Under the pieces are notes generated by a model, which saw only the letters and a program-made list of their open reading frames with translations, ran no database searches and had not been told where the DNA came from. Position numbers and translations under genes: made by a program. Of a DNA stretch of 44,529 nucleotides, positions 1-44,311 are shown in pieces. Location: IMG/VR virus record IMGVR_UViG_3300022912_000003; one strand, given 5' to 3'. Numbering within the stretch: the first letter of the stretch is position 1; each line of letters opens with the position of its first letter. This DNA is from a virus.

Positions 1-127
1 TACCTAATTTTACTATGTTCAGGCTTAGCGGAAACTATCCTGCAATAGTCCCAAGTATCAATCAATTAATAACTGTTGAAGTATATCGTATCACAGAGAA
101 AGTCTACAAGAAGATAGAACAGTTAGA
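1..127. repeat. Terminal direct repeat copy 1, identical to 44403-44529 (circular-assembly overlap)
   Basis: Read directly: tacctaattttactatgttcagg...aagatagaacagttaga is present at both window ends, 127/127 identical. Confidence 0.97.
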
Positions 128-245
128 ATTACCTTACAATTATCATGCTGAAACTATCACAACCGAATTTGGTGTCGCTACTATATATGTCTATAATACT
201 ATAGAAAGTGGCGACTGGAATAAACAAAGTAAAAGGAGGCTCTAA
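1..245 (+). CDS. gamma-glutamylcyclotransferase-like (AIG2/GGACT family) protein, C-terminal part of the junction-spanning gene
   Basis: In frame with 44312-44529 through the terminal repeat. Contains ..YPAIVP..VEVYRI..IEQLELPYNYH..ATIYVY typical of the GGCT-like fold, including the LE(x) Glu. Stop TAA at 243-245. Confidence 0.8.
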   Translation, partial: PNFTMFRLSGNYPAIVPSINQLITVEVYRITEKVYKKIEQLELPYNYHAETITTEFGVATIYVYNTIESGDWNKQSKRRL

Positions 246-445
246 TGAGAGCAATAAGACATGCGGCAATAGCAGTATTATCAATGATTTACACAAGTAT
301 GTGGTGGGTATCAATTCTATGGTATCCCGCAAAATGGGTAGCCCCAATATTAGCACTGTCAGTTGTTGGTGGGTTATTAATAATGACTTTTATCTGTATG
401 TGGGTTATAGATAATTGGGATTTTCGTAGCCCTAATTTAAGATGA
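245..445 (+). CDS. small membrane protein (about 2 TM helices)
   Basis: ATG overlaps the upstream stop (TAATG). Hydrophobic stretches AIAVLSMIYTSMWWVSILW and VAPILALSVVGGLLIMTFICMWV. Confidence 0.6.
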   Translation: MRAIRHAAIAVLSMIYTSMWWVSILWYPAKWVAPILALSVVGGLLIMTFICMWVIDNWDFRSPNLR

Positions 446-528
446 ACAAGTCTATAACTGTGATTGAGGTAATAGTCTCAATAATAACTGTACTAACAAT
501 AATAACAGGAGTAATTATCAATGGATGA
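442..528 (+). CDS. 28-aa hydrophobic peptide (putative)
   Basis: ATGA overlap with the upstream stop. MNKSITVIEVIVSIITVLTIITGVIING. Its stop overlaps the start region of the next gene. Below the ORF-track size cutoff. Confidence 0.3.
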   Translation: MNKSITVIEVIVSIITVLTIITGVIING

Positions 529-892
529 TTGGAATGGAAGATTATTAGAAGCCTATGATGCTTTAATAGCAGGGCTTAATAGTGTAAAGGACTTTGCTGT
601 AGAGCAAATACCAATAGTATTGCAGCAGCTCTTAGCATGGGAGTTTACAATAAATCTTATTGGGTTTGTATGTGCTATTGTTTTACTAATAATATTTACA
701 GGTGTGGTTTTATGGGGTTGTAAGTACTGTGTAGAAGAAGGTGAACCCCCTGTAATACCGATAATACTTTTAGTATCATCATTTATATATATACCCATTG
801 GATATTGGATTAATAATACTATTGTTTGGCTTAAAATCCTTATTGCACCTAAAGTATTCTTAATTGAATATCTGTCAGAACTTGTAAAATAA
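521..892 (+). CDS. membrane protein (about 3 TM helices)
   Basis: 123-aa ORF with long hydrophobic segments (LIGFVCAIVLLIIFTGVVLWG, PVIPIILLVSSFIYIPIGYWI). Part of a translationally coupled chain. Confidence 0.6.
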   Translation: MDDWNGRLLEAYDALIAGLNSVKDFAVEQIPIVLQQLLAWEFTINLIGFVCAIVLLIIFTGVVLWGCKYCVEEGEPPVIPIILLVSSFIYIPIGYWINNTIVWLKILIAPKVFLIEYLSELVK

Positions 893-999
893 TGAACACA
901 AAAACTAAATGGCGGATATACTGTAGAATGATAGCCTCAGTTATATTATTCATCGCAGGATTCACATTATTTGTACACTTAGTATCGTTAGTGAGGTAA
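892..999 (+). CDS. 35-aa single-pass membrane peptide (putative)
   Basis: TAATG overlap with the upstream stop. MNTKTKWRIYCRMIASVILFIAGFTLFVHLVSLVR. Confidence 0.35.
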   Translation: MNTKTKWRIYCRMIASVILFIAGFTLFVHLVSLVR

Positions 1000-1002
1000 C
1001 GT

Positions 1003-1257
1003 ATGAAATTTATACATAAATCAACACCGGCTATGACAGATGCTATGAAAAAATATCTCGTAGAACATCAATTATTAGAGAAATATTATGAAGAAATTAT
1101 AAAATTCTCCAATGAAGATGAAACTTGGAACCCTACTAATGTTGCAAAAAAACCTGCTGAAAGGTTCATTCTTGCCAGTTCAATATATGGTTATAGATTT
1201 TGGGAACAGCATAATGCTGCTTGTATCCTATTGCATAAAGGAGTCTACTATGTGTAA
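1003..1257 (+). CDS. FW-motif small protein family, paralog 1
   Basis: GAGGT RBS before the ATG. N-terminal KKYLVEHQLLEKY and C-terminal FILASSIYGYRFWEQH match the family pattern shared by 9 ORFs in this genome. Confidence 0.7.
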   Translation: MKFIHKSTPAMTDAMKKYLVEHQLLEKYYEEIIKFSNEDETWNPTNVAKKPAERFILASSIYGYRFWEQHNAACILLHKGVYYV

Positions 1258-1393
1258 ACAATTTGTTAAATCTGATACGTGCGGGTGTACTAAATGTGAC
1301 CCTGTACCAATATGGAAACAATGCTTTGCTATGTTATTCTTAGCAGTCTCATTCATTGGTTTCGTATACTTACTCATGGTGTGGAGTATCTGA
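1250..1393 (+). CDS. 47-aa protein with Cys-rich N-terminus and C-terminal TM helix (putative)
   Basis: AAAGGAG at 1237-1243, ATG at 1250. MCKQFVKSDTCGCTKCDPV...FAMLFLAVSFIGFVYLLMVWSI. Stop overlaps the next ATG (TGATG). Confidence 0.45.
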   Translation: MCKQFVKSDTCGCTKCDPVPIWKQCFAMLFLAVSFIGFVYLLMVWSI

Positions 1394-1614
1394 TGCCAAT
1401 TAAAATAGTGCAATCACTTCACTTATTCTTGACACAAAGACAATTACTGAAAACCTTTATATCTTTAACAGTGAAAGGTAATACTGTAAGAAATTTTATA
1501 GATCGCCCTTGTTCTTCTATAGACTCTGCGTTTAATTGGAGTATTTCATCACAGGGACACAGGTTTTGGGAGAATAAATCACGAGAATATGAAACATGGA
1601 AGGAGGGATTATAA
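1393..1614 (+). CDS. FW-motif small protein family, paralog 2
   Basis: Internal ATG of track ORF 1312-1614, chosen because it is coupled to the upstream stop. LHLFLTQRQLLKTF ... SAFNWSISSQGHRFWENK. Confidence 0.7.
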   Translation: MPIKIVQSLHLFLTQRQLLKTFISLTVKGNTVRNFIDRPCSSIDSAFNWSISSQGHRFWENKSREYETWKEGL

Positions 1615-1827
1615 ATGAAAATTGAAATAATACCAGAATTGCGTTTATATTTGATGCAGAATCAATTATTAAAAGAATTCACAGAAGAGGTGAGAGCATA
1701 TAGATCACTCAACCCAATGATGATGTGGAAAGAATGCAGAACAATAGATTGTTTTATTTGGAGAGAGTCTATACAAGGATATGAATTTTGGAGAATAGCC
1801 TGTCACAAATTTTATCAGGAGTTTTAA
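1615..1827 (+). CDS. FW-motif small protein family, paralog 3
   Basis: AAGGAGG RBS. LRLYLMQNQLLKEF ... CFIWRESIQGYEFWRIA. Start immediately follows the upstream TAA. Confidence 0.75.
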   Translation: MKIEIIPELRLYLMQNQLLKEFTEEVRAYRSLNPMMMWKECRTIDCFIWRESIQGYEFWRIACHKFYQEF

Positions 1828-2052
1828 ATGGATATTAAACTAACACAGAAATTACACCTGTATTTGATACAGCACAAGGCACTACATCTGTTTATTGATG
1901 AAGTGGAATCACGAGCAATAAGAAATACAATGTATAACCCTAATATAAGACATTCCTGTGTGAATAATTCCCTTCATTGGACTAATACACACCAAGGGGC
2001 ACAATTTTGGGAAGATATATACGAAGGTTTTTGTGCATGGGAGTATAGATAA
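1828..2052 (+). CDS. FW-motif small protein family, paralog 4
   Basis: LHLYLIQHKALHLF ... NSLHWTNTHQGAQFWEDIY. Start immediately follows the upstream TAA. Confidence 0.75.
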   Translation: MDIKLTQKLHLYLIQHKALHLFIDEVESRAIRNTMYNPNIRHSCVNNSLHWTNTHQGAQFWEDIYEGFCAWEYR

Positions 2053-2261
2053 TGATAATCCATAAGAGAGAGAAAGATTATCTTGTAAGACATCAATTAA
2101 TAGTTGAATTTGAGGAAGAATTCGATCAAGAATTTTTTGATGGATTGGATGATGAAGACCATACTATACGGATAGGCTCTGCATTTAATTGGGGTCGTTC
2201 AAAAAGAGGAAGTGATTTTTGGAATAGAGTACATTTAAACGTAATAAGAGGACAACACTAA
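2052..2261 (+). CDS. FW-motif small protein family, paralog 5
   Basis: TAATG overlap with the upstream stop. DYLVRHQLIVEF ... SAFNWGRSKRGSDFWNRVH. Confidence 0.75.
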   Translation: MIIHKREKDYLVRHQLIVEFEEEFDQEFFDGLDDEDHTIRIGSAFNWGRSKRGSDFWNRVHLNVIRGQH

Positions 2262-2280
2262 ACACGAAAGGAACAAATAA

Positions 2281-2361
2281 ATGATGGCAATAATTGCTAT
2301 GACGTATATTACAATAACGGCTACTATGACAGTAGTCAAATTAAAAGGAAGAACAAAATGA
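2281..2361 (+). CDS. 26-aa hydrophobic peptide (putative)
   Basis: AAAGGA RBS. MMAIIAMTYITITATMTVVKLKGRTK. ATGA overlap with the amidoligase start. Confidence 0.3.
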   Translation: MMAIIAMTYITITATMTVVKLKGRTK

Positions 2362-3890
2362 AAATCAAGTTCATTTTAGGCGGATTTTCACCTGAACAGG
2401 TGAGGTATATTGGTAAAAGTAGAAGGGCTTTTTCTAATATAGCAAAAGCTGAGGAGTTTGCATCTTTGAGAGGTAAAGCGTCTCTTAATGCAAAAACAAT
2501 AAGTGTGCAATTCGGAAGAATCCCGTCATGGTATCAAGCTATACGTGAAGGTATGATAAATCCTCCAAGCGGTAACAATGTATGGAGAGAGGTAGAAACA
2601 AAGTACGGAACGAAGAAAATAACCACAGGAATCTACTCCGTAGAGAAACCTGACTGCTATTTCAGTGATAATGTGGAAAGTAATGAGGTAGAGGCAACTC
2701 TATATTGTCCCGGATCACTAACAGAACATGACTGTGATAAAATTAGCAGGAATCTTACAAACTGTACGTTCAACCTACTGCCTTTAGTTATGAGTAGCCT
2801 TATAGCTAAAACAAAAGCATACTTTCTGAGGGAATCGCACGTAAAAACTACCATGAAAACAGATGGTATTGTCATAGAACTATCATTTGACGATACTAAG
2901 AGTACATCGTGTCCTCTATGTGGTGATGGGAAACCAACACGTAAAATACCAAATGGTATACACGTCTGTGAGAGCTGTTTTAGTGGCTTACCGCACTGCG
3001 AGCACTGTGCTGTAGTCATGATAAACAATGGTACGAGTAAATTATGCCCTGATTGTAAGAAAAAAGCAGTAAAATGCTCAAAATGTGGGACAAAGTTCAT
3101 CGCAAGAACATCTAAAGAGAAAAAAATCGGTAAATGTGCATCTTGTTATGAAAAATCAAGAGGTGTTGTGCAGAATTATAGTTATAACCCTGTGATTCCG
3201 CAATTTCTTGATATTCGTGGCAAAAGAGTTGTTTCTTATAGGGATAACTTTGCAAATGGAGTAGAGCCAAAACTATTTTTTGGATTTGAGAATGAAATGT
3301 ATGTGAAAAAACCACTTCACGAGAACATGGATAAAATACTTGAGGATGTTGGGCTCTTTGTATACTATAAAGACGATAGTTCTGTAAGAAAATCAGCAGG
3401 ATCAGACTGTAATAACGGGGTAGAGATGGTATCTTATCCTATGACATGGGAATTCTTCAACAAGCATCTGTACGATGGTCTACAAACCATTGATAATAAG
3501 GTTCTGACTGATGGGAACTGTGGATTACACGTACATTTCTCACGAGATGCCCTGAGTATACCACAGATGATAAACGTGGTGAAGTTCACTATGGATAATA
3601 AACCCTACATGATAAGAAGAAGTGGCAGGGGTGGTGAAAATTCCTTCTGTAAATATTCTGTTGATATGATGACAGGATTAAAACGAATAAATGACATCAA
3701 CCAGACTTTTGGTAGTCGGTGGGTATGGAACTTTAACAAACCAGCAACCATAGAATTTAGAGGGTTCTCAGGCTGTAGTAGCACATCTGAATTACGGGCT
3801 AAACTAATCTTTATCTTGTCAGTCCTTGAGGCAGGTAAAAATGGTACAATAACAATCGAAAAAATAGAAACAATAGAAAGGACATTTTAA
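2358..3890 (+). CDS. amidoligase (GCS2/glutamine-synthetase-like COOH-NH2 ligase, Amidoligase_2-type) with a ~270-aa N-terminal extension carrying multiple CxxC zinc ribbons
   Basis: C-terminal half carries FGFENEMYV, GVEMVSYPM, CGLHVHFS and IEFRGF in the order typical of the amidoligase_2 family. The N-terminal part has CPLCGDG..CESC..CEHC..CPDC..CSKC..CASC. Confidence 0.75.
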   Translation: MKIKFILGGFSPEQVRYIGKSRRAFSNIAKAEEFASLRGKASLNAKTISVQFGRIPSWYQAIREGMINPPSGNNVWREVETKYGTKKITTGIYSVEKPDCYFSDNVESNEVEATLYCPGSLTEHDCDKISRNLTNCTFNLLPLVMSSLIAKTKAYFLRESHVKTTMKTDGIVIELSFDDTKSTSCPLCGDGKPTRKIPNGIHVCESCFSGLPHCEHCAVVMINNGTSKLCPDCKKKAVKCSKCGTKFIARTSKEKKIGKCASCYEKSRGVVQNYSYNPVIPQFLDIRGKRVVSYRDNFANGVEPKLFFGFENEMYVKKPLHENMDKILEDVGLFVYYKDDSSVRKSAGSDCNNGVEMVSYPMTWEFFNKHLYDGLQTIDNKVLTDGNCGLHVHFSRDALSIPQMINVVKFTMDNKPYMIRRSGRGGENSFCKYSVDMMTGLKRINDINQTFGSRWVWNFNKPATIEFRGFSGCSSTSELRAKLIFILSVLEAGKNGTITIEKIETIERTF

Positions 3891-3891
3891 T

Positions 3892-5091
3892 ATGTGTTTA
3901 CTCATGTTGCAAAAAGGTGGGCATGTTATCCCAAAGGAGCATATAGAGCAAGCCTTTAAGACTAATAAAGACGGCTTGGGGTTTGCTTATGCTTCTGATA
4001 GTGTAATAAAACTACACAGATTCAAAACAACAAAACCATTCTTTAAGGCTTATTATAAAGCTGTACACGCAAACCCTGATGCAAACTTTCTTGTACATCT
4101 GAGGTTTGGTACGAGTGGTAGAAAAGATGACACTAATTGTCACCCGTTCTATGTTAATCCTAAGCTTGTGTTCGCACACAACGGAGTTATCCATTCTATT
4201 GCTGATGATCCTGAGAAGAAACTGTGTGACACAAGAATGTTCTGTGAATTAATCTTGAAAGAGGTTGATAAAGAGTTCCTATCTAATGAGGCACTATGCG
4301 AATTGATCCTATCATATATAGGAATTGGTAATAAGTTGGCGTTCCTTGATAATGAGGGGAAGTATACCATTATGAATGAGAGTGTAGGACATTGGAATGA
4401 AGGGGTATGGTATAGTAATATGAATTACAAATCAAACACCTATAAAACAAGGACTTATACACCCCCAAAAACGAGTAAAACTCCACACAGAAGTTCAGCA
4501 TGGTATCAGAATAACCGTTGGAATGGCACTGAGTTTATTAATAGGGCTACAGGTGAAGTAGTTCTTGATGATGAGGGTGATGAGCCTTATGATAATATTA
4601 CTCCATACTCACAGGGTGATCTCTATGATGATAACCCTGCATGGGGTTGGGGTGATATTGCAGGAGACCACATCGGTAATAACCATGAGGCAGGATGTCC
4701 TAATGAAGTAAAGGCTCTCGCTGAAACAAATGCTGTAAAACCATGTAAAGAGAATACCGTTCTCATGAGAAAAGCGGGGTCTGATTTTGCATGGAGTTGT
4801 AAACATAAGATCGGTAAAAAGATACAGTGCAATCATTGTGGTGAACCGAAGGGGACATTAATATCTCTTGATTGGCAGGGCTTTATGTGTTCAACTATGA
4901 AAGATAACACGATAGAGTGGCAATTTGAAATGCTTGGCTTAGAAGAAGTTGATATATATATATGTGAGCAATGTTTTACATCGCTTGAATATATCATGGA
5001 AGGCGACCTGACAAGTCAAGTTAGCAGGGTAATGACAAAAATCTATAAGAATAGATATGATATTATTCCTGAGAATATGCCGACAGTATGA
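3892..5091 (+). CDS. class-II (Ntn) glutamine amidotransferase-like protein with a Cys-rich C-terminal domain
   Basis: Starts MC.. (Cys2 nucleophile). DGLGFAY, HLRFGTSG, NCHPF and FAHNGVI match class-II GATase motifs. The C-terminal ~230 aa has CNHCGEP ... CEQC. Confidence 0.75.
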   Translation: MCLLMLQKGGHVIPKEHIEQAFKTNKDGLGFAYASDSVIKLHRFKTTKPFFKAYYKAVHANPDANFLVHLRFGTSGRKDDTNCHPFYVNPKLVFAHNGVIHSIADDPEKKLCDTRMFCELILKEVDKEFLSNEALCELILSYIGIGNKLAFLDNEGKYTIMNESVGHWNEGVWYSNMNYKSNTYKTRTYTPPKTSKTPHRSSAWYQNNRWNGTEFINRATGEVVLDDEGDEPYDNITPYSQGDLYDDNPAWGWGDIAGDHIGNNHEAGCPNEVKALAETNAVKPCKENTVLMRKAGSDFAWSCKHKIGKKIQCNHCGEPKGTLISLDWQGFMCSTMKDNTIEWQFEMLGLEEVDIYICEQCFTSLEYIMEGDLTSQVSRVMTKIYKNRYDIIPENMPTV

Positions 5092-5168
5092 TTGACATGT
5101 ATGACATAATGGCAGTAGTTGTAACTGCTCTGTTAGTGTACTTGGTTGATAAACTAATAAATAAGTAG
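5088..5168 (+). CDS. 26-aa single-pass membrane peptide (putative)
   Basis: ATGA overlap with the GATase stop. MIDMYDIMAVVVTALLVYLVDKLINK. Ends just before the RBS of the ATP-grasp gene. Confidence 0.3.
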   Translation: MIDMYDIMAVVVTALLVYLVDKLINK

Positions 5169-5176
5169 GAGGTATA

Positions 5177-5917
5177 ATGATCTATAGTACAACAAAAACA
5201 AGAAAAGGGGCTAAGTTAATAGCAGGATTGTGTGGGATGCGGACTACCGTATCCTTAGAGATGGCAAGGAATGCCCCATTTATAATACATTGGGGTACGA
5301 AGTGTGCAGAATCATTCAGTAGGAAACCAAGGCTGAATAGTAATCTACATTTGGTGAGGAATAAACTGACAGAGCTAACTATGTTGAGAGATGGTGACAT
5401 AAGAACAGTACCATTCTCAGAGAATCCTGATAGTGTTAGTTATCCAGCATTTGGTAGGTTATTTAATCATAGGGCAGGTACAGATATTCGTCTGTGCTTG
5501 TCAAGATTACACGCTGACTATGCCAAGAGTAATTTCTACAGTGAATATATAGATTCTAAAACAGAATACCGTGTCCATGTATTTAGAAATTGGGCTACAG
5601 ATAAGTACAATGTATTTAGAATACAGGAGAAATATCTCGAATCACCATTCAGCAATAAACCGTACTGTCGCAGTCGTGGCAATGGATTCCATCTGAGGAA
5701 CGTGAATAGGGAACAGTGGAGAGATTTTCCTGTGACTGTCAGGCAGTTAGCAACAAAGGCTTGTAGGGTCTTAAATAGAGACTTCGCCGCATTTGATATA
5801 ATTGTTACGCCTGATGATATACCGTATATTCTTGAAGCTAATTCAGCCCCCGGATGTGATGACCTTGGTGCATCGTTGTATGCTACAAGATTCCGTTCAT
5901 GGGCTGATTCATTATAG
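5177..5917 (+). CDS. ATP-grasp family ligase (RimK-like)
   Basis: AGGAGG RBS. EYRVHVF strand and FDIIVTPDDIPYILEANSAPG (E-x-N Mg/ATP motif) are characteristic of the ATP-grasp fold. Confidence 0.7.
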   Translation: MIYSTTKTRKGAKLIAGLCGMRTTVSLEMARNAPFIIHWGTKCAESFSRKPRLNSNLHLVRNKLTELTMLRDGDIRTVPFSENPDSVSYPAFGRLFNHRAGTDIRLCLSRLHADYAKSNFYSEYIDSKTEYRVHVFRNWATDKYNVFRIQEKYLESPFSNKPYCRSRGNGFHLRNVNREQWRDFPVTVRQLATKACRVLNRDFAAFDIIVTPDDIPYILEANSAPGCDDLGASLYATRFRSWADSL

Positions 5918-5925
5918 GAGGGACT

Positions 5926-6207
5926 ATGGATAGAAGTAACAATGCTAACGGATTATTGAGATTCTTGAAAGAGAATCAAGCGTACGAAAACTACATGAAA
6001 AAAACATCTAAGGATAGGGATTATAAATCCTTAGAAGATTTCATGGGGTTTGTAGAAATCATTGTAAACGAAGGGAGATATATTTCAGAAATATTTCGGA
6101 TATCTTTTAGTCGTGGGTTTTACCAAGAATATGGTGATGAACCATATTGGCACGGTATTGATATGAAATGGAGACAAGTATGTTGGGATTATTGTGATCG
6201 CCCCTAA
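5926..6207 (+). CDS. FW-motif small protein family, paralog 6 (divergent)
   Basis: GGAGGG RBS. LLRFLKENQAYENY ... YGDEPYWHGIDMKW. Confidence 0.6.
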   Translation: MDRSNNANGLLRFLKENQAYENYMKKTSKDRDYKSLEDFMGFVEIIVNEGRYISEIFRISFSRGFYQEYGDEPYWHGIDMKWRQVCWDYCDRP

Positions 6208-6466
6208 GTTAAGACTATTTCTAATAAAACGACAGGCTCTTGATCGGTTTGAATATAGACTTGATCCTGATAACTTTCCATATATGAATGACTGTTCAGA
6301 TGATTGTATGATTGAGGAAGCATTCGCTTGGGATGGAGACGATGATGAAGATTATTGGGAAGATTTGAATGGTGAATGGAATGATCTATGTGATACAATG
6401 TCAAACTTTAACATAGATGATATACTTAATGACTTTAGGAGTTTACATAGTTATGATACACTCTAA
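6194..6466 (+). CDS. FW-motif small protein family, paralog 7 (acidic variant)
   Basis: GTG start, 14-nt overlap with the upstream gene. LRLFLIKRQALDRF ... EAFAWDGDDDEDYWEDLNGEW. Confidence 0.6.
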   Translation: MIAPKLRLFLIKRQALDRFEYRLDPDNFPYMNDCSDDCMIEEAFAWDGDDDEDYWEDLNGEWNDLCDTMSNFNIDDILNDFRSLHSYDTL

Positions 6467-6701
6467 TCCTATATTCAGACATAGAATGCTTGTTACATTC
6501 TTATTAGAACGTCAAGCGTTGGATAAATTCCATTCCAATCTAAATAATGAAGATATAATAAATATGAGTACTGCCTGTAGCACCATAAATGTTAAAGCTG
6601 TGATATTCAATTCATTCTTTTGGAGTCAAACACCAGAAGGAGATGCGTATTGGGATTCATTACATCAGGAGTTTAGTAGTTTTTATATAGATTCTAATTA
6701 A
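6453..6701 (+). CDS. FW-motif small protein family, paralog 8
   Basis: Internal ATG of track ORF 6417-6701, preceded by TAGGAG. LVTFLLERQALDKF ... NSFFWSQTPEGDAYWDSLHQEF. Confidence 0.6.
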   Translation: MIHSNPIFRHRMLVTFLLERQALDKFHSNLNNEDIINMSTACSTINVKAVIFNSFFWSQTPEGDAYWDSLHQEFSSFYIDSN

Positions 6702-6707
6702 TCAATA

Positions 6708-6763
6708 ATAGTATATTATAATACTTATATAATATATATAATATAATAAGAGAGGTAAAAATG
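6708..6763 (+). promoter_or_regulatory. AT-rich promoter-like element plus RBS (TATAATATATATAATATAATAAGAGAGGTAAAAATG), copy A
   Basis: 59-bp intergenic gap. Near-identical element on the opposite strand at 39721-39765. Contains several TATAAT-like hexamers. Confidence 0.5.
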
Positions 6764-7012
6764 AGTTATGTGAAACATACACAAATGCCACAGACTGGAC
6801 AGTTTGTATTAATATGGAGTTACGATGGTAAAATTTGGAGCGACGTGTGTAAATGGATAGATGGTGTTTTATATCGTTATGATAAGAGCAGTGAGTGTGA
6901 TGATGAAAATTGTGGTTGTGATATCGGTTTTGAAGGGATAGATCAACACCCTGCTATGCAAGAAAACTATCAAGATTTAAATTATTTTACAATAAGAAAC
7001 GAAAGGAGTTAA
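6761..7012 (+). CDS. hypothetical protein (83 aa, Cys/acidic-rich)
   Basis: AGAGAGG RBS and ATG. First gene after the AT-rich element. Confidence 0.65.
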   Translation: MSYVKHTQMPQTGQFVLIWSYDGKIWSDVCKWIDGVLYRYDKSSECDDENCGCDIGFEGIDQHPAMQENYQDLNYFTIRNERS

Positions 7013-7127
7013 TATAAGCAATCAATTAACAATAGTAGATGACAGCACGTTATCAAATATAGTAGCAAGTCATAAGAAAGTATCTGAAACAGCTACACCA
7101 CCTGCACACGTAGAACAGAAAGCAGGG

Positions 7128-7622
7128 ATGGACTTTGTAAGTGAAGGATATATGAGGTCAGTGCTGAATAAAGAGTTTCCATTATGGTCTTGGGAAATAA
7201 AGAAGTATGAGTTACTTGGAGACAAGGAAGTAATCGTGCATGGTAGATTAACTATTAACGACAACAACACAGTAAGATTCTTTGATGCGGTAGCGTCGCA
7301 CAGAATAGCGGTTAGTAAAACCACAGGTGAATATGTCGATATAAGTAATAATATCAAAGCGGCTAACTCAGATTGTTTCAAGGTAGCAACTAACAGGTTG
7401 TGTAATGTAGCTGATGATGTGTACCGTAAATTAATAAGAGACCTATCCTTAACAGAGGAACAGGTTGATATAATAGACGGATTATTAGAAACATTAAACA
7501 ACACAACAACAGAAACGGAGATACGATCACGAATAGCAAGTGGTGCAGTGAACACCGACACATTTGACAAGTATGTCAATATGATAAAAGACGTAATAAA
7601 GAAAAAGATAGAGGAACATTAA
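7128..7622 (+). CDS. Rad52/Sak-like single-strand annealing protein (true start may lie upstream, frame open from 7014)
   Basis: ..VEQKAGMDFVSEGYMRSVLNKEFPLWSWEI.. resembles the Rad52/Sak core (Y.EG..v...N..FG..GWS.E). Sits in front of the SSB-like and helicase genes. Confidence 0.65.
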   Translation: MDFVSEGYMRSVLNKEFPLWSWEIKKYELLGDKEVIVHGRLTINDNNTVRFFDAVASHRIAVSKTTGEYVDISNNIKAANSDCFKVATNRLCNVADDVYRKLIRDLSLTEEQVDIIDGLLETLNNTTTETEIRSRIASGAVNTDTFDKYVNMIKDVIKKKIEEH

Positions 7623-8198
7623 ATGCCAAGATATGACCCATCAAAAGATATAAACCCTTACGTGAGATTTGTTGCAGGAGATTATCCCGCACATATCACT
7701 AAGGTTACAACAAGAATGGTTAACGTTCAGAAAGGCAAGTATAGAGCAGAGGTTTATAATATAACCTCTACTATAAACGAAGCCGTTAGTGGCACAACCT
7801 TCAAAACTATGGACAACAAAGGAGTAGAAAAAGAGGTCGAGGGTAAGCACTTCATTGATAAAGAAATACGACACAACGGAGTATTCAGATTTCTTGACCC
7901 ACTTGACATTGATGAATTTGAGTCAAACGAGGGTGGTAATGGAAAGTATATGAAGCTGTGCGAAGCTGTCGGTGCTGAACTAAAAGAAGTCAAAGAGGGT
8001 GAGCATACGTTATGGGAGTTTCCTGTAATAGATGAATCACACCTTATTGGTAAACCTATAATCGTGACAGTAGGACAAGGTAAGAAATATCTCAATAAAT
8101 CAAATGAGTGGGTGTATCCTATGATGGGTACAGACTTGTGTGTATGGGAAAGTGGAACACCTATTACTGATCCTGATAAAGAGGAATTACCCTTTTGA
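7623..8198 (+). CDS. putative ssDNA-binding protein
   Basis: Position between annealase and helicase. The C-terminus ..DPDKEELPF mimics the acidic-hydrophobic SSB tip (DDDIPF). Confidence 0.45.
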   Translation: MPRYDPSKDINPYVRFVAGDYPAHITKVTTRMVNVQKGKYRAEVYNITSTINEAVSGTTFKTMDNKGVEKEVEGKHFIDKEIRHNGVFRFLDPLDIDEFESNEGGNGKYMKLCEAVGAELKEVKEGEHTLWEFPVIDESHLIGKPIIVTVGQGKKYLNKSNEWVYPMMGTDLCVWESGTPITDPDKEELPF

Positions 8199-9520
8199 CG
8201 ATAGCTATTCCACCTAATTCGCCTGATGCAGAGATGGCGGTAATAGGTAGTGTAATGCAGACCCCTGCATTCTATGGTGATGTATCATTATATGTTAATG
8301 AGACAACACTGTACGATCAGACAAATAAACATGTATGGCAAATAATAAGAAACCTTATGGAAAACGGTAAGACTGTCGATTTTGTAACACTATCAAGTGC
8401 ATTAACAAAGGAAGATAAGGAAAAGTACGTTACTGCTTATACACTCTCACTGTATAGTGACAACGCAACATCATCTGTTGATCGTGTCACAATATATGCT
8501 AAGGAAGTGTATGAAAAGTACCTCATGCGTCTTGCAATCAAGCACGCAGGAGACTTAACGAGAACAGCCTATAATAATCCCTCGAATTTGTACAGTGTGT
8601 TGAACAGTGCTAACGCTACTATAAATGAGTTAATTGCTATGCTACCGTCGCATCCTTTCGACATGGGCGACGAATTAGACAAGACAATTATTACCCTTGG
8701 TAATGAGGAATCCAATCTTATCCCTGTAGGATTTGATAGTGTGGATGCCCTTGCCGGTGGTATGACTCGTGGAGAGGTTACTGTCATAGGCGGTAGACCG
8801 GGACACGGTAAAACAACATTCTCTCTAAACATTGCAAGTAATCTCGTATCGAGTGGTTACAAAGTCCTTATGATAAATAGGGAAATGACCAATATGGAGA
8901 TGCTTAAAAAACTAATAGTATTAGAGAGTGGTGCTCTATCGTATGGCAGAATGAGACGAGGTGATTTGTCCGATCTAAATAGAGAGGAAATAAATAGAGT
9001 TAGAGATTCCGTCCAAAAGAAATTTAACTCAGAACGATTCATGATGTGTGACAATATATTTGACATGGCATCTGCGGTAAATGTAATAAATCGGTTTAAG
9101 CCTGACGTAATTATAGACGATTACATCCAGCTTATCCGACCCGACAATCCGTCAGATCAACGTAGATTCCAAATAGAAAATATTGTGCACCAGTATAAAA
9201 GACTTGCAAAATCAATAAACTGTTCAGCCATACTTGTCTCTCAATTATCGAGAGCACTGGAAGCGAGAGGTCAAGGAGCGAGACCAATCCTTTCAGATTT
9301 GGCGGAATCGGGTACGATAGAACAAGTAGCAGAGAACGTGTGGTTTACATATTATGACTATAAAGTTTTTATGGGTCATAGTAAATCAGGTCAGAACGAG
9401 ATAGAAGTTATATGTGCGAAAGTGCGTTATGGTACAAGTGGTGTGTCTCACTGTGGTTACGATGGCGACAGAGTAAAGTTCTATGACTCTATAGATTCTT
9501 ACCGAAGTACGTTGTTTTAA
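8195..9520 (+). CDS. dnaB: DnaB-like replicative DNA helicase
   Basis: TTG start overlapping the upstream stop. N-terminal PPNSPDAEMAVIGSVM, Walker A GGRPGHGKTTFSLNIA, Walker B VIIDDYIQLI, SQLSRALEAR. Confidence 0.9.
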   Translation: MTIAIPPNSPDAEMAVIGSVMQTPAFYGDVSLYVNETTLYDQTNKHVWQIIRNLMENGKTVDFVTLSSALTKEDKEKYVTAYTLSLYSDNATSSVDRVTIYAKEVYEKYLMRLAIKHAGDLTRTAYNNPSNLYSVLNSANATINELIAMLPSHPFDMGDELDKTIITLGNEESNLIPVGFDSVDALAGGMTRGEVTVIGGRPGHGKTTFSLNIASNLVSSGYKVLMINREMTNMEMLKKLIVLESGALSYGRMRRGDLSDLNREEINRVRDSVQKKFNSERFMMCDNIFDMASAVNVINRFKPDVIIDDYIQLIRPDNPSDQRRFQIENIVHQYKRLAKSINCSAILVSQLSRALEARGQGARPILSDLAESGTIEQVAENVWFTYYDYKVFMGHSKSGQNEIEVICAKVRYGTSGVSHCGYDGDRVKFYDSIDSYRSTLF

Positions 9521-9526
9521 AAAAAT

Positions 9527-9557
9527 GGGGGCGGGTTTATTAACATGTCCCGTCCCC
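9527..9557. terminator. GC-rich hairpin (9-bp stem GGGGGCGGG/CCCGTCCCC). A canonical U-tract exists only for minus-strand transcripts
   Basis: Stem arms at 9527-9535 and 9549-9557 with one G-U pair. Preceded by A7 on + (T7 following on -). Sits right after the dnaB stop. Confidence 0.45.
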
Positions 9558-9576
9558 AGCCTAAACGGAGAAAACA

Positions 9577-9789
9577 ATGAGAGAGAAGACAAATTACAAG
9601 ATGTGGACAGATGATTATGGGTATAACTATAAAGTCAGCACACTAAGCCTTTCTGATATTATACATGTAGCGAGAAGAGTAATAACGGGGAGGATTCGCA
9701 GGCAGAATGCCAAGCAGTGGCTTGAAACATTCAGAGGTGAAGCCATTAGAAGGCAGAAATTGGAGGAATACGAACATGCAACTTCATAA
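9577..9789 (+). CDS. hypothetical basic protein (70 aa)
   Basis: ACGGAG RBS and ATG. Arg/Lys-rich. Confidence 0.55.
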   Translation: MREKTNYKMWTDDYGYNYKVSTLSLSDIIHVARRVITGRIRRQNAKQWLETFRGEAIRRQKLEEYEHATS

Positions 9790-10300
9790 TTATATAAGAA
9801 CAGTTTCAATTGAGAATAAAAGAACTAATGGTATTCTTGATGGTGATTGCCATGTGTTCCCGTGGATAGAGGGTGCTGTGTGTGGTGTATATCTTGGTGA
9901 AGATGAACTGATGCACTTCTGTTCAAGAACAAAGAAGATACCATATCACTTTGAGGATTGGAAGAATAGTTGGATAGGTCAGTTTATAGCATGGTGTTAC
10001 CATGATGTAGATATGATGGGAATGATAGAGGACTTCCCTGATTGTATATTCTGGTTTGTATGGAATACTGAGGACAAGCATCAATTAGTAGATGTATATT
10101 TATCAACGGAAGATAGGTATATACCATACAATGTGTACAGTGAATTACTTAGTGAGTACGATGTACGTCCTGTGGAGCCTATAGTTCAGGGTGATGTGAG
10201 GGATGCAATACAAGAAATGCCCATAGATATTATCATCAAAGACTATGACTTTGAAAATGAGTTTGGTGTTAATAATTGGGCAAAAGCGAATAAGGAATAG
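9776..10300 (+). CDS. hypothetical protein (174 aa)
   Basis: Internal ATG of track ORF 9707-10300, chosen because GGAGGA lies 8 nt upstream. 14-nt overlap with the previous gene. Confidence 0.6.
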   Translation: MQLHNYIRTVSIENKRTNGILDGDCHVFPWIEGAVCGVYLGEDELMHFCSRTKKIPYHFEDWKNSWIGQFIAWCYHDVDMMGMIEDFPDCIFWFVWNTEDKHQLVDVYLSTEDRYIPYNVYSELLSEYDVRPVEPIVQGDVRDAIQEMPIDIIIKDYDFENEFGVNNWAKANKE

Positions 10301-10302
10301 AT

Positions 10303-10581
10303 ATGGAAATACCAAGTGAGTTTAAAAACACGAATCCAATAGATAAGTGGATTAAAGTTGCCATGCTACACGAGGCTAATCAGCTTGCAGAATCAAAAGC
10401 TATTACCACAGACAAGCAAGGCATAGGATTGGACTTATGTTATTGTCCTAAATGTGGAAGAGTATTTAGTATGGAGATACTAAAGGGTGAAACATACCAA
10501 CAGTATTACAACGCTCTTCCAAAAACACAACACATAACATTATGTGATCCATGTTTCGTGGAGGTGTGTGATGAAAATTAG
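10303..10581 (+). CDS. hypothetical zinc-ribbon protein (92 aa)
   Basis: CYCPKCG ... CDPCF Cys pairs. Confidence 0.6.
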   Translation: MEIPSEFKNTNPIDKWIKVAMLHEANQLAESKAITTDKQGIGLDLCYCPKCGRVFSMEILKGETYQQYYNALPKTQHITLCDPCFVEVCDEN

Positions 10582-10780
10582 GCTTAGACCAAAAATAAAA
10601 CGATACTGCATTGAAAATCAAATCTTAGATAAGATAGAAGAGGAAGCTCATCTTCCTATGGACTTTCATGGGTTGAGTACATTCAGATGGGCTACCTCAA
10701 TATATGGTGCTCATTTTTGGATTAGACATGAAAGTGGTTTTAATAATTATTTAGAAAGAGGGGAAATATATGGCAATTAA
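10571..10780 (+). CDS. FW-motif small protein family, paralog 9
   Basis: GGAGG RBS 6 nt upstream of the ATG at 10571. IKRYCIENQILDKI ... STFRWATSIYGAHFWIRHE. Confidence 0.65.
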   Translation: MKIRLRPKIKRYCIENQILDKIEEEAHLPMDFHGLSTFRWATSIYGAHFWIRHESGFNNYLERGEIYGN

Positions 10781-14057: not shown

Positions 14058-14302
14058 AATCTAAATCAGATAAACGAATAGTATTTAACTGTCAGATGTG
14101 TGTTTTAGTAGGGATGATTATAGCTATTGTTATTGTCACATTGGCTATACCAATTGTTGATGAACCTTCATGCCCCAAATACATATATGAAGTCAAGGGT
14201 GATGGATCTGCCCTTGCAAAAGATTGCAATGAACATGAATGGAGAGGGATACCTCCACGATATGGAGTCATCCGAGTATGGCAGGTTGGTGAGGTGGGAT
14301 GA
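14051..14302 (+). CDS. small membrane protein (1 TM)
   Basis: GTG start overlapping the upstream end. MCVLVGMIIAIVIVTLAIPIV hydrophobic helix. ATGA overlap with the downstream methylase. Confidence 0.45.
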   Translation: MVKSKSDKRIVFNCQMCVLVGMIIAIVIVTLAIPIVDEPSCPKYIYEVKGDGSALAKDCNEHEWRGIPPRYGVIRVWQVGEVG

Positions 14303-14883
14303 GATTCGACGCGACCTGTGAGGACAACATGACCCTAATGGCTCGATACCCCGACAACTACTTCGATTTAGCTATAGTCGATCCGCCGTATGGGGATGGG
14401 ACTATAAAAGGCCGAAACACCACTTTAGATAAAAATTGGAATTTCAAGCCAGACAAAGAGTATTTTACAGAATTATTCAGAGTGAGTAAAAATCAAATCG
14501 TTTGGGGCGGGAATTATTTTGATTTACCTATCAATAAACATTTTGTGATTTGGGATAAAAAACAGTTCATGAACAACCAGTTTGCGAGATGCGAATATGC
14601 TTGGTCGAGTTTAAGATATAATGCAAATATTTTCCAATGCTTCTACAATTCAGACCACCGAATGCATCCCACTCAAAAACCCGTAAAATTATATCAATGG
14701 CTCTTACAAAACTATGCCAAACCAGGTGATAAAATACTCGATACACATTTAGGTTCAATGTCTATCGCTATTGCCTGTCATAAAGAGGGCTTTGATCTTA
14801 CTGGTTGTGAGATTGACCGAGAATATTACGATGCAGGCATGAAAAGACTTGAACAGGCTATGGCACAGCAAGAATTATTTTAA
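14299..14883 (+). CDS. DNA methyltransferase, N6-adenine/N4-cytosine type (DPPY motif), orphan
   Basis: LAIVDPPYGDG (motif IV) near the N-terminus and ILDTHLGSMSIAIAC (AdoMet motif I-like) near the C-terminus, a beta-class order. No adjacent endonuclease. Confidence 0.8.
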   Translation: MRFDATCEDNMTLMARYPDNYFDLAIVDPPYGDGTIKGRNTTLDKNWNFKPDKEYFTELFRVSKNQIVWGGNYFDLPINKHFVIWDKKQFMNNQFARCEYAWSSLRYNANIFQCFYNSDHRMHPTQKPVKLYQWLLQNYAKPGDKILDTHLGSMSIAIACHKEGFDLTGCEIDREYYDAGMKRLEQAMAQQELF

Positions 14884-14933: not shown

Positions 14934-15557
14934 ATGAAGATATTAAACTTATACGCAGGTATAGGTGGTAACAGGTTGTTATGGGGAAACGGAATAGATG
15001 AAGTAACCGCAATTGAATATGACCAAGAGATAGCAAATGCATATAAAAGTGCGTTCCCATCTGATGAAGTATTAGTTTGTGATGCCCATGAGTTCTTACT
15101 TGACAACTACAGGGACTATGATTTTATATGGGCATCACCACCATGCCCAAGTCATTCAGATATAAGAAGATGTGGAGTCCACGCAGGACAGTATGGTGCT
15201 ATATATCCTGACATGGGGTTGTATCAGGAGATAATCTTACTACAGAACTTCGCACGTACAGATACAAGATGGGTTGTTGAGAATGTAAAGCCATACTATC
15301 CACCATTAATACCACCATCACATCATTTGCATAGACATTTATATTGGAGTAACTTTCATATTGATAACTTTAATGTCACTGATAGTAGAAAACATAACGA
15401 TATAGTTGGTTCTTCAACGGTTTATGGTTTTAATATTACAGATACACCAATAAGAAATAAAAGAAAGGTATTAAGAAACATGGTTGACCCTGAACTTGGC
15501 AACCATATATTTAATTGTGCTCTTGACAGTATAACAGAACAAGGAGAATTATTTTAA
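14934..15557 (+). CDS. C5-cytosine DNA methyltransferase-like protein, unusually short (207 aa)
   Basis: LNLYAGIGGN (motif I), WASPPCPSHS (PC motif IV), VVENV (motif VI), C-terminal ..LGNHI.. (motif X-like). Very little room for a target-recognition domain. Confidence 0.6.
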   Translation: MKILNLYAGIGGNRLLWGNGIDEVTAIEYDQEIANAYKSAFPSDEVLVCDAHEFLLDNYRDYDFIWASPPCPSHSDIRRCGVHAGQYGAIYPDMGLYQEIILLQNFARTDTRWVVENVKPYYPPLIPPSHHLHRHLYWSNFHIDNFNVTDSRKHNDIVGSSTVYGFNITDTPIRNKRKVLRNMVDPELGNHIFNCALDSITEQGELF

Positions 15558-34006: not shown

Positions 34007-34903
34007 TTAAGGATTGAGTATCGCAATACCCTTTAAGTGATTAGAACTATCTGTCATGATTGATCCATAAACAAGATCAGCAACAGTTTTCCAACCAAGG
34101 TAATCAATATCATACTGTGATTGCATTCTTACACCACGTTGCACAGCGAAAGCCAATGCAGTTTTGTGGAAGAAGTAACCAACGTGCGTACCTGTAGCGG
34201 CGGCACTTGATATGATATTAGACACATGTAAAGGCATCCCGTATAGACTTGGTATTTTACCAGTCAAAAGAGCATTTGATCCACCAGAGTAATCCCAAGT
34301 AATGTATCTACTATTAGCTAATAGATCAGCATATACTGTTGGATTAACAACTACAGCCATCTGACCATCCTGCCAAGGAATGTCATTAGTACCAAGAGCG
34401 GCAATTACCGTTTCAAGGTTAACGTCACTTAAAACATTAGCTGCTGTTAAGTTTTGGTCTGTTGTCATACCACGCAATTTAGCTTCGAGAGCTGTGTCAA
34501 ATACTTTAGAGAGAGCATAGCCCATAGACTGTGCATACTTACTAAATAATTCTCCGTGTGCTTGAATGACTGCGATGTCTTCAAGAATCTTAGCAGCGTA
34601 CTTGTGCTGATCGACAACTAAGTCAATAGCATTTTCTGTGTTTTCAGTGTACGTTACACCAGTATTAGCAACTTTAGTTCCAGTTGCAACTTCTTGAATC
34701 TGAGGGATATGTATTGTGTCCCCCTCACTCTGTATCATAGCACTAAAGTCATCACACAATGGTGCAAATACAAGGTTCTTTTCAAAGTATCGAAATACAG
34801 GGTTTGCCCAAAGTTCAGGTACAAAAGCATCTAAACTTGTTCCGGCTAAATCACCTTGTCCCGATCCAGTTGTGGCGTTTCCGCCCCATGCTGTAATAGG
34901 CAT
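34007..34903 (-). CDS. major capsid protein (HK97-fold type)
   Basis: Follows the scaffold gene. FVPELWANPVFRYFEKNLVFAPLCDDFSAMIQSEGDTIHIP resembles the N-terminal region of many HK97-like capsid proteins. 298 aa. Confidence 0.8.
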   Translation of the reverse strand: MPITAWGGNATTGSGQGDLAGTSLDAFVPELWANPVFRYFEKNLVFAPLCDDFSAMIQSEGDTIHIPQIQEVATGTKVANTGVTYTENTENAIDLVVDQHKYAAKILEDIAVIQAHGELFSKYAQSMGYALSKVFDTALEAKLRGMTTDQNLTAANVLSDVNLETVIAALGTNDIPWQDGQMAVVVNPTVYADLLANSRYITWDYSGGSNALLTGKIPSLYGMPLHVSNIISSAAATGTHVGYFFHKTALAFAVQRGVRMQSQYDIDYLGWKTVADLVYGSIMTDSSNHLKGIAILNP

Positions 34904-40466: not shown

Positions 40467-40484
40467 ATGATTTCCTTTATTTTG

Positions 40485-40556
40485 AGCCAACATAAGGAGT
40501 CGAACCCTAATCTTCTGGGTACAAACCAGTGGTAATAGCCATTATACTACATTGGC
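40485..40556 (-). tRNA. tRNA-Thr(UGU)-like gene, 72 nt, no encoded CCA
   Basis: Hand-folded cloverleaf: acceptor GCCAATG/TGTTGGC (2 G-U), U8, A14, G18G19, A21, anticodon loop TT-TGT-AC, 4-nt variable loop, T arm TAGGG-TTCGACT-CCTTA with G53, T54, T55, C56, A58, C61. Confidence 0.65.
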
Positions 40557-44310: not shown

Positions 44311-44311
44311 T

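Follow-up and report, generated by a model that had tools for sequence, protein, structure and literature searches.

The genome of a marine phage in IMG/VR record IMGVR_UViG_3300022912_000003 (44,529 nucleotides, the whole stretch analyzed and referred to here as the window) carries a set of amide-bond enzymes that belongs, as a highly divergent member, to the cassette previously described in LUZ24-like, Pa11-like, phiEco32, DES1, and marine OM43 phages. Its four enzymes, predicted to be an amidoligase (gene 1), a class-II glutamine amidotransferase (GATase; gene 2), a RimK-like ATP-grasp ligase (gene 3), and a γ-glutamyl(amine) cyclotransferase of the GGACT/AIG2-like type, are intact, have complete catalytic residue sets, and form one + strand unit that opens the replication module. 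In all phage loci that could be assessed, the genes for the amidoligase and GATase are neighbors, an obligate pair. Tentatively, and with a likelihood that we place just short of even, we read the cassette as a pathway that would make, extend, and trim a γ-glutamyl peptide or amide in the early phase of infection; peptide- or γ-glutamyl-type chemistry, as proposed in a first-pass annotation of the window, is the best available reading of its chemistry.

Organization of the cassette

Genes 1 (2358-3890; 510 amino acids) and 2 (3892-5091; 399 amino acids) are separated by 1 nt. An open reading frame (ORF) for a hydrophobic micropeptide of 26 amino acids, MIDMYDIMAVVVTALLVYLVDKLINK, follows at 5088-5168, its start overlapping the stop codon of gene 2 (ATGA), an arrangement predicted to couple its translation to that of gene 2. 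Gene 3 (5177-5917; 246 amino acids) starts 8 nt past the micropeptide ORF and has an AGGAGG Shine-Dalgarno sequence ahead of it. All are on the + strand, and the ORF list places the three packed genes and the bridging 26-amino-acid ORF at exactly the coordinates given in the first-pass annotation. The three cassette ORFs are not chance occurrences, since homologs exist, the motif residues are invariant in distant relatives, and other phages have the same gene order.

The window represents a complete phage genome in which the first 127 nt (1-127) recur without change at the end (44403-44529). This repeat is an assembly overlap, giving a true length of 44,402 bp for a circular or terminally redundant genome; the same phage is also present on metagenome contigs of 44,542 to 44,543 bp. 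As the overlap sits at the window junction, the GGACT gene looks split, with its N-terminal part at 44270-44529 (+ strand; GTG start at 44270) and its C-terminal part at 128-245 (+ strand; the stop codon ends at 245). It encodes 125 amino acids, precedes gene 1 by 2.1 kb, and has an alternative ATG start at 44312 (MKLLATYGTL). Its identity was established by Pfam PF06094 on the same gene in three contigs (L005 to L007) and by a match to PHROG 2520, "gamma-glutamyl cyclotransferase" (E value, 1.5e−17), and the YGTL motif and the Glu of VEVY can be read from the protein. The nearby GGCT-like gene noticed earlier is therefore real and spans the window junction. Directly upstream of the annotated GGACT start, and overlapping it, is a Cys-rich ORF of 53 amino acids (44149-44310, + strand; MSCCDGWEY...CKDCG...CETCGWSPCDQSC) with CxxC...CxxC spacing, which is annotated as a gene on the JGI contigs and may encode another cassette-associated zinc-ribbon protein.

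The closest relative of the locus is a 4.7-kb marine contig (L003) with the same genes in the same order (34%, 29%, and 43% identity), and in it a hydrophobic counterpart of 25 amino acids, MYDLLILSTLCIFAVILINQWEERK, fills the same slot between the orthologous genes. No micropeptide was found at the LUZ24 and DES1 junctions or at 21 other GATase/ATP-grasp junctions, and a search in 80 further ATP-grasp loci gave two weak candidates only. The inclusion of this ORF in the cassette by the first-pass annotation holds as far as its presence goes; its conservation is confined to the clade of the window, and absence elsewhere rules it out as a general cassette component.

The amidoligase

The product of gene 1 is predicted, from sequence profiles and a structural model, to be a glutamine-synthetase-fold carboxylate-amine ligase of the Amidoligase_2 family that carries a zinc-finger array. 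Three regions can be distinguished: a lineage-specific N-terminal region (residues 1 to 177; 2358-2888), a segment with six CxxC pairs at residues 185, 204, 214, 230, 240, and 260 (residues 178 to 272; 2889-3173), and the Amidoligase_2 catalytic core (residues 273 to 510; 3174-3890).

The core contains the motifs FGFENEMYV (308 to 316), GVEMVSYPM (354 to 362), CGLHVHFS (388 to 395), and IEFRGF (465 to 470). Alignments of 26 and 61 distant homologs showed G309-x-E311-x-E313, D340, E356, P361, G389-x-H391, R424, and E466-x-R468 to be invariant, and metal- or ATP-site roles may be assigned by analogy to the acidic, His, and Arg residues among them. At the profile level, gene 1 matched the PHROG "amidoligase" (3.4e−7), and PF12224 was matched by 24 of the 26 aligned homologs (best, 1.2e−11). 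The AlphaFold model is confident for residues 178 to 510. Foldseek searches with gene 1 returned type III glutamine synthetase (GS; 3o6x, 5.5e−5), a GS of type I (8fbp), YbdK (1r8g/1tt4), and γ-glutamylcysteine ligase (γ-GCL; 2gwc) with probabilities of 0.8 to 1.0, with the Pup ligase PafA and the deamidase Dop as weak fold neighbors (E values, 6e−3 to 8e−3); TM-scores were modest (0.2 to 0.33) because only the core aligns. Gene 1 has no close relatives. A word-indexed homolog search with gene 1 found itself only, single-sequence PDB searches with genes 1 and 3 gave nothing informative, and just one gene 1 relative exceeds 30% identity over the core. An exhaustive search placed gene-1-like proteins in more than 1,000 clusters at 50% identity.

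Within the Cys-rich segment, C214/217, C230/233, C240/243, and C260/263 were nearly invariant in the same two alignments. The profile of the segment matched LIM domains in the PDB at 2e−5, and its predicted local distance difference test (pLDDT) values were 80 to 92. Judged by its sequence, the CxxC array behaves like tandem LIM-like zinc fingers; a conserved Y274...P278 motif follows it. No homologs of residues 1 to 177 were identified, as all 1,023 relatives from an exhaustive HMMER search aligned to residues ~160 to 510 only. AlphaFold gave pLDDT values below 50 for residues 1 to 57 and 68 to 177, and hence no confident fold, and this N-terminal region is not common to the L003 ortholog.

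The class-II glutamine amidotransferase

Gene 2 encodes a compact Cys N-terminal nucleophile (Ntn) class-II GATase domain (residues 1 to 180; 3892-4431), followed by a predicted disordered linker of ~125 residues (181 to 309; 4432-4818) with pLDDT values of 29 to 55 that could not be aligned among homologs, and by a C-terminal domain of ~90 residues (310 to 399; 4819-5091; pLDDT, 63 to 82) with a CxxC...CxxC zinc ribbon (C313/C316 and C358/C361). The motifs MCLLM (1 to 5), DGLGFAY (27 to 33), HLRFGTSG (69 to 76), NCHPF (82 to 86), and FAHNGVI (94 to 100) all lie in the first domain. Gene 2 scored above the Pfam cutoff for GATase_4 (27.2 bits), and its profile matched the glutaminase domain of GlmS (2e−10), 3mdn (1e−8), and PurF (1e−7) in the PDB. 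Residues 1 to 180 were modeled with a pLDDT above 90 as an Ntn αββα fold, for which Foldseek returned GlmS (8.6e−7), EgtC (2.5e−5), and PurF (2e−3).

The nucleophile C2, kept in more than 90% of homologs, aligns with Cys1 of GlmS, and R71, N97, G98, and D113, invariant across 28 sequences, map to GlmS Arg73, Asn98, Gly99, and Asp123. In GlmS, these five residues supply the nucleophile, the ligands of the α-carboxylate and α-amino groups, and the oxyanion hole. Since the residues for the amino acid head group are kept, gene 2 should accommodate free glutamine or else γ-glutamyl-X compounds whose amino acid head is free. No fused acceptor or synthase domain of the kind present in PurF, GlmS, AsnB, or GltS is found in gene 2, which past residue 180 consists of the linker and zinc ribbon only; its architecture is that of a stand-alone EgtC/YafJ-type protein. 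The zinc ribbon is kept in the L003 ortholog (P0003), an analogous one is present in LUZ24 gp19, and 32 of 80 viral loci, from ~15 of 24 lineages, have a C-terminal zinc ribbon on the GATase. The C terminus of gene 2 reads ...PENMPTV and is not an acidic Glu tail.

The ATP-grasp ligase

Gene 3 is, by its sequence relationships, a predicted RimK-like ATP-grasp ligase, with the motifs EYRVHVF (130 to 136) and FDIIV...EANSAPG (206 to 226). It matched PHROG 2599 (3.9e−17), and its homologs carry PF08443. The family profile matched RimK structures (7qys, 1e−11; 5zct/4iwx, 2e−10), compared with 2e−4 for the D-Ala-D-Ala ligases (Ddl). R132, D207, and E220-x-N222 are invariant in the family and fit the ATP-grasp template (PMC4431377). 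An invariant Arg, R94, occupies the canonical Lys position of RimK at the end of RAGNYA strand 2, the Gly-rich ssxGbGl loop deviates (HRAGTDI, with G-x-D rather than G-x-G), and the pre-ATP-grasp (N-terminal) region is short. The same Arg is found in LUZ24 gp21 and in the DES1 protein, making it a family trait, and the Arg94/loop variant is probably still functional. Membership of the R2K clade, an idea that arose from R94, was dropped, as the family matches RimK and the definition of R2K rests on other features (PMC4431377). A search for related loci in viral contigs with gene 3 alone gave no match.

Across the three genes, every motif quoted in the first-pass annotation was present at its expected place, and the three family assignments made there hold at the profile and structure levels, with the catalytic residues intact. 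The residues that it had singled out (Cys2, the E-x-E pair, and E-x-N) align as anticipated; the departure is the invariant R94 of the ATP-grasp enzyme in place of the canonical Lys.

Conservation across phages

The cassette had no megablast match in 50,697 phage records, and tblastn to LUZ24 gave none either, the identity being at or below the detection limit. Remote homology to LUZ24 was confirmed by hhalign, with probabilities of 95% for gene 1 and gp18, 89% for gene 2 and gp19, and 98.8% for gene 3 and gp21. The order in LUZ24 is gp18 (amidoligase), gp19 (GATase), gp20, gp21 (RimK-like), and gp22 (GGCT), directly upstream of the primase/helicase. Xanthomonas phage DES1 has GGCT, amidoligase, GATase, and ATP-grasp genes in a row and contains two amidoligase-GATase pairs (3762-6328 and 7275-9821), the first flanked by the GGCT and ATP-grasp genes and the second located 1 kb further downstream. 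Phage MEP402 also carries an amidoligase-GATase pair.

Co-occurrence was assessed in 80 IMG/VR loci with the same GATase subfamily, which were scanned with hidden Markov models (HMMs) from our own alignments. The amidoligase gene was immediately upstream of the GATase gene, on the same strand, in 77 loci, and this was so for all 72 of the 72 with enough upstream sequence to judge; the two genes usually overlap or abut. ATP-grasp genes were found in 26 of the 80 (21 directly downstream of the pair, 4 upstream, and 1 elsewhere). Downstream of the cassette, a DnaB-like helicase gene is present in 64 loci and genes for a polymerase or exonuclease in 34 to 40. In a second set, 80 metagenome loci collected with the ATP-grasp profile, a GATase gene was upstream in 24 of the 35 that could be assessed. 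The stable unit is the amidoligase-GATase pair, with ATP-grasp and GGCT as frequent accessories. Co-conservation of all three genes, required by the first-pass annotation, is borne out in L003 and remotely in LUZ24 and DES1; more widely it gives way to that of the pair. The cassette is very widespread, occurring in phages that infect Pseudomonas, Escherichia, Xanthomonas, Rhizobium, or marine methylotrophs and, reportedly, also in viruses of archaea, and throughout it sits in early or replication modules.

A comparative-genomic description of the cassette is said to have been given by Iyer et al. in 2009. It has been annotated in LUZ24-like phages (PMC3890496) and Pa11-like phages (PMC6209634), an amidoligase-GATase pair is reported in a virus assigned to Poseidoniales (PMC11706807), and a nanohaloarchaeal virus is reported to have the same gene types, with an adjoining ATP-grasp gene and stand-alone glutaminase (bioRxiv 10.1101/2025.02.15.638363). 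As relayed by papers of 2023 and 2025, which offer no later proposal, the 2009 conjecture was that the cassette modifies the cell wall, excludes superinfecting phages, or serves secondary metabolism (PMC10580990 and PMC11706807). The searchable literature holds comparative mentions and no experimental function for the cassette, the 2009 account being represented there through the papers that cite it. The earlier statement that comparative genomics had noted these genes but that their product had yet to be found agrees with this, as PMC3890496, PMC6209634, PMC10580990, and PMC11706807 cite only that conjecture.

Proposed chemistry of the cassette

The four fold types match those of the γ-glutamyl cycle, which argues for a glutamate-centered chemistry. 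Gene 1 can be cast as the glutamate activator because its structural neighbors (GS, YbdK/GCS2, γ-GCL, and PafA/Dop) all activate the γ-carboxylate of glutamate. Having the GS fold, as do GS, γ-GCL, YbdK, PauA, and PafA, gene 1 would couple a carboxylate of the glutamate type to an amine after activating it with ATP, and the RimK-like gene 3 product would extend a free carboxylate with glutamate. Cys2 of gene 2 would cleave the γ-amide of glutamine or of γ-glutamyl-X, as EgtC does next to EgtA, and GGACT would convert γ-glutamyl-amines to 5-oxoproline and the amine. The species common to these steps would be a γ-glutamyl amide with a free α-amino acid head group. The structural relatives of gene 1 all form a bond of this kind, and enzymes of the GGACT family need a γ-glutamyl amide with a free head group for cyclization. 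Among the structural neighbors of gene 2, the stand-alone γ-glutamyl amidohydrolase EgtC is on a par with the glutaminase domain of GlmS. By analogy, the variable zinc-finger arrays and the N terminus of gene 1 suggest that the enzymes dock on a host-specific macromolecule or on each other.

Several points weigh against this make-extend-and-trim scheme. Beyond the folds and the integrity of the active sites, every step is deduced. The carboxylate activated by gene 1 cannot be read from sequence, and the zinc-finger case for a macromolecular target is an analogy. Two of the enzymes fall short of Pfam cutoffs as single sequences: gene 1 alone scored 19.6 bits against the Pfam Amidoligase_2 cutoff of 22 (E value, 9e−4), and gene 3 alone is below the Pfam cutoffs. 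If a ligase formed and a hydrolase broke the same γ-glutamyl bond, the result would be a futile cycle. GGACT was found in 5 of the 80 loci, using a weak HMM built from three sequences, and in about two-thirds of the loci the pair occurs without ATP-grasp and without detected GGACT. With the pair alone in so many loci, the scheme needs an extra intervening step, and this favors an explanation in which the pair works as an amidotransferase.

According to that alternative, the main rival although less likely than not, genes 1 and 2 would be the subunits of a glutamine-dependent amidotransferase, in which ammonia released by gene 2 passes to gene 1 for the ATP-dependent conversion of X-COOH to X-CONH2. 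It would be analogous to GatD/MurT or to a glutamine synthetase with channeled ammonia, with ATP-grasp and GGACT as optional tailoring enzymes. A self-sufficient pair, adjacent in every assessable locus and without ATP-grasp in about two-thirds of loci, is explained better in this way than by making and trimming, and the futile cycle is avoided. Gene 2 has the full glutamine-binding and catalytic set, and its best profile and fold match is the GlmS glutaminase domain; the 1-nt spacing suggests cotranslation and complex formation, and the zinc modules on both proteins could be docking surfaces. To our knowledge, however, every characterized class-II amidotransferase has its glutaminase fused to the synthase, and EgtC, the characterized stand-alone class-II protein, is a hydrolase. 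No GATase-amidoligase fusion was present among the relatives examined, and an amidotransferase leaves unexplained why GGACT accompanies the cassette here as well as in LUZ24 and DES1.

Small zinc-ribbon proteins in related loci

In 34 to 36 related loci, a protein of 56 to 75 amino acids is encoded just downstream of the amidoligase-GATase(-ATP-grasp) genes; examples are MEP402 gp10 (L002:4546-4740) and, in IMG/VR, L067:2031-2249 and L025:4843-5016. It consists of a CxxC...CxxC zinc ribbon (MRCxACxKxLxDFESTRK...DLCNxCF) and an acidic tail with 40% D/E; of 31 unique sequences, 22 have Glu as the last residue and 2 have Gln. By analogy, it resembles the carrier LysW, or Pup, and we regard this as a lead. 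The stand-alone protein was anticorrelated with the ribbon fused to the GATase (27 loci with the fused form only, 34 with the stand-alone form only, and 1 with both; Fisher test, 1.7e−10). Fusion or fission of a single zinc ribbon was considered and rejected, as the anticorrelation collapses to two or three lineages in clusters at 60% identity and is mostly a clade effect; the HMM of the stand-alone ribbon did not detect the fused GATase tails. In the window, no stand-alone LysW-like protein was found with this HMM (best E value, 0.26).

These proteins bear on a further explanation, a protein-tagging or carrier system in the style of pupylation or LysW, in which the ligases would act on the C-terminal Glu of a small protein and the zinc fingers would pick the target. 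PafA and Dop are among the fold neighbors of gene 1, the RimK family modifies protein C termini, the number of zinc fingers on the amidoligase varies, and the acidic zinc-ribbon protein of the MEP402 gp10 type lies downstream of the pair and is anticorrelated with the fused ribbon. We nevertheless consider the idea improbable: the window lacks such a small protein, the tail of gene 2 is not Glu terminated, the stand-alone protein is confined to two or three lineages, and the pocket of gene 2 expects a free α-amino group, which a residue embedded in a protein does not offer. A glutamate-based tagging of macromolecules, in which the zinc-finger arrays of the amidoligase and GATase would dock the enzymes on a host-specific protein, or on a small LysW/Pup-like zinc-ribbon protein such as the free-standing one of MEP-type relatives, the ligases would write a γ-glutamyl or oligo-Glu mark and the Ntn hydrolase and GGACT would edit or erase it, is of similarly low probability. 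If true, tagging would be a viral counterpart of pupylation or of LysW-type carrier chemistry, serving host takeover or antidefense.

Two more families of very acidic miniproteins were observed directly after the GATase gene in L025, L028, L031, L049 to L056, L060, and L063. The first has ~39 amino acids (MLTWYIVVE...DEYVHDMEGN), and the second has ~50 to 85 amino acids and ends in CCRGDCK or CCQLGDIK. Each was found in 13 loci, in a clade without ATP-grasp.

Genome setting

The early or replication arm of the genome is a + strand block running from ~41.1 kb via the window junction to 16 kb. It includes a DnaB-like helicase gene (8195-9520, + strand; TTG start), the sole replication gene among the early-arm ORFs scanned, in which no DNA polymerase or primase was detected; in most related loci, by contrast, polymerase genes come after the cassette. 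Genes for the large terminase (38235-39539) and for the major head protein (34007-34903) are in the − strand arm. Early-arm placement, as proposed in the first-pass annotation, is thus a fair description. A single tRNA-Thr gene (anticodon TGT; 40484-40556, − strand) marks the border of the late arm and the second + strand block and overlaps an ORF at 40507-40818. A scan for terminators found no + strand terminator-like site in 1-9000, in keeping with a single transcription unit, and promoter-like sites were no more common than in shuffled sequence.

Nine paralogs of a family of 70- to 100-amino-acid proteins are encoded on the + strand, five upstream of the cassette (1003-1257, 1312-1614, 1615-1827, 1828-2052, and 2052-2261), three just downstream of it (5926-6207, 6194-6466, and 6417-6701), and one at 10544-10780. 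They share the motifs L..(Y/F)L...Q.L..F and (F/W)xW...G..(F/Y)W, and their matches to PHROG 16354 (function unknown) are weak. Two methylase genes lie further along the same strand, one for an N6/N4 DNA methylase with a DPPY motif near its N terminus (14299-14883) and, directly after it, one for a C5 cytosine methylase of 207 amino acids (14934-15557). The latter covers only the first 82 of 324 positions of the Pfam profile and may be truncated or unusually compact; no restriction enzyme gene adjoins the two. The small-protein arrays and methylases had been offered as signs of a modification or antidefense role. Both are present, and both are absent from all 82 related loci clustered, which rules them out as cassette partners and leaves that link without support.

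Putative small membrane proteins are unusually abundant in the early arm. Small, strongly hydrophobic ORFs of 26 to 123 amino acids with predicted membrane segments (245-445, 442-528, 521-892, 892-999, and 2281-2361, all + strand) form a run between the GGACT gene and gene 1, and the stop codon of the 26-amino-acid ORF just before gene 1 overlaps the gene 1 start (ATGA).

Peptidoglycan stem peptides have γ-glutamyl linkages and are amidated by ligase-plus-glutaminase pairs. This background, and an early arm in which small membrane ORFs abound, the cassette micropeptide included, would suit the modification of envelope precursors, such as amidation or extension of the γ-D-Glu/meso-diaminopimelate stem peptide, leading to superinfection exclusion. 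The proposal is attributed to Iyer et al. 2009, and PMC10580990 and PMC11706807 refer to it as the conjecture that still stands. Amidoligase-GATase pairs are also reported, however, in viruses assigned to archaea that lack peptidoglycan (PMC11706807; bioRxiv 10.1101/2025.02.15.638363). As signal peptides and membrane anchors are missing from the three enzymes, and the cassette is linked to replication genes rather than to lysis or envelope genes, an envelope target appears very doubtful.

The position of the cassette at the head of the replication module and the two orphan methylases could also be taken to point to DNA, with the cassette amidating or glutamylating a carboxylated or hydroxymethylated pyrimidine as protection from restriction. 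Amide- and glutamyl-containing bases exist in phages, and zinc ribbons can bind nucleic acids. Against this, the early-arm ORFs scanned included no enzyme that would supply a modifiable base (no hydroxymethylase, dioxygenase, base-exchange transglycosylase, or kinase), co-conservation with the cassette was not seen for the methylases, and the pocket of gene 2 fits free glutamine or a γ-glutamyl head group. We know of no report of hypermodified DNA in the cassette-bearing LUZ24-like phages or phiEco32. The likelihood of base hypermodification is slight in the extreme, and the DNA base listed earlier among conceivable targets gained no specific support.

Identifying the product of this cassette, first described fifteen years ago, would probably reveal either a new phage-made metabolite or a new kind of host-protein modification. 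The hypotheses are narrowed by the comparative results, namely, the obligate pair, the optional ATP-grasp, the intact glutamine-type pocket, the zinc modules on both core enzymes, and the LysW-like protein in related clades. The copy described here, from an uncultured phage, gives little experimental leverage, and LUZ24 and other cultured phages are better places to find the answer.

Comparison with known systems

Similarity to PafA and Dop is at the superfamily level only and consists in the GS fold. These enzymes act on the γ-carboxyl group or γ-carboxamide of a C-terminal Glu or Gln, and a Pup-like GGQ/GGE protein is not part of the phage system. With RimK and RimABK, which polyglutamylate ribosomal protein S6, and with LysX/LysW, the link is gene 3, the family profile of which matches RimK structures best. 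RimK-family ligases act on C-terminal glutamates of proteins (S6 and LysW). Gene 3 differs from RimK in having R94 for Lys, the deviating Gly-rich loop, and a truncated N-terminal domain, and the window has no RimA/RimB or LysZ/Y/J/K genes and no LysW-like protein, unlike the RimABK and LysW systems.

The EgtA/EgtC system of mycobacterial ergothioneine biosynthesis likewise encodes a GS-fold ligase with a stand-alone amidohydrolase of class-II GATase fold; later in that pathway, EgtC, one of the best structural matches of gene 2, strips the γ-glutamyl handle. Differences are that EgtB, EgtD, and EgtE homologs are missing from the phage, that gene 1 belongs to Amidoligase_2 rather than to the EgtA/GshA family, and that the GATase domain of gene 2 is shorter (~180 amino acids) and accompanied by a zinc ribbon.

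The enzymes of the Meister cycle and glutathione metabolism are γ-glutamylcysteine ligase, glutathione synthetase, γ-glutamyl transpeptidase (GGT), and γ-glutamyl cyclotransferase. The phage unit departs from this set in using a Cys-nucleophile class-II GATase where the cycle has the Thr-nucleophile GGT and a RimK-like rather than a GshB-like ATP-grasp enzyme, and it has no 5-oxoprolinase or dipeptidase. It is like the γ-glutamyl cycle in bringing together a GS-fold carboxylate-amine ligase, an ATP-grasp enzyme, an Ntn hydrolase for a γ-glutamyl amide, and a GGCT-fold cyclotransferase.

The nearest known system is the cassette of the LUZ24-like phages (Bruynoghevirus), made up of gp16 (COOH-NH2 ligase), gp18 (amidoligase), gp19 (GATase), gp21 (RimK-like), and gp22 (GGCT) and also present in UFV-P2, Pa11/TC6, phiEco32, DES1, and the OM43 phages MEP401 and MEP402. 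A circumstantial point in favor of γ-glutamyl chemistry is that, in yeast two-hybrid assays, an early protein of LUZ24, gp9, binds PauA2, the γ-glutamylpolyamine synthetase of the host (PMC4635203). Unlike in LUZ24, a second ligase of the COOH-NH2_lig type (PF14395) was not detected here, in a search of limited sensitivity with a single-sequence gp16 HMM (E value, <1e−3) and a Pfam scan covering part of the window ORFs. The GGACT gene is 2.1 kb upstream here and directly downstream of the cassette in LUZ24, gene 1 has the 177-residue lineage-specific N terminus and six CxxC pairs, and the hydrophobic 26-amino-acid ORF takes the place of gp20. What the two have in common is the same enzyme families, encoded in the order amidoligase, GATase, small gene, and ATP-grasp upstream of helicase/replication genes, a C-terminal CxxC...CxxC on the GATase, and the presence of a GGCT gene.

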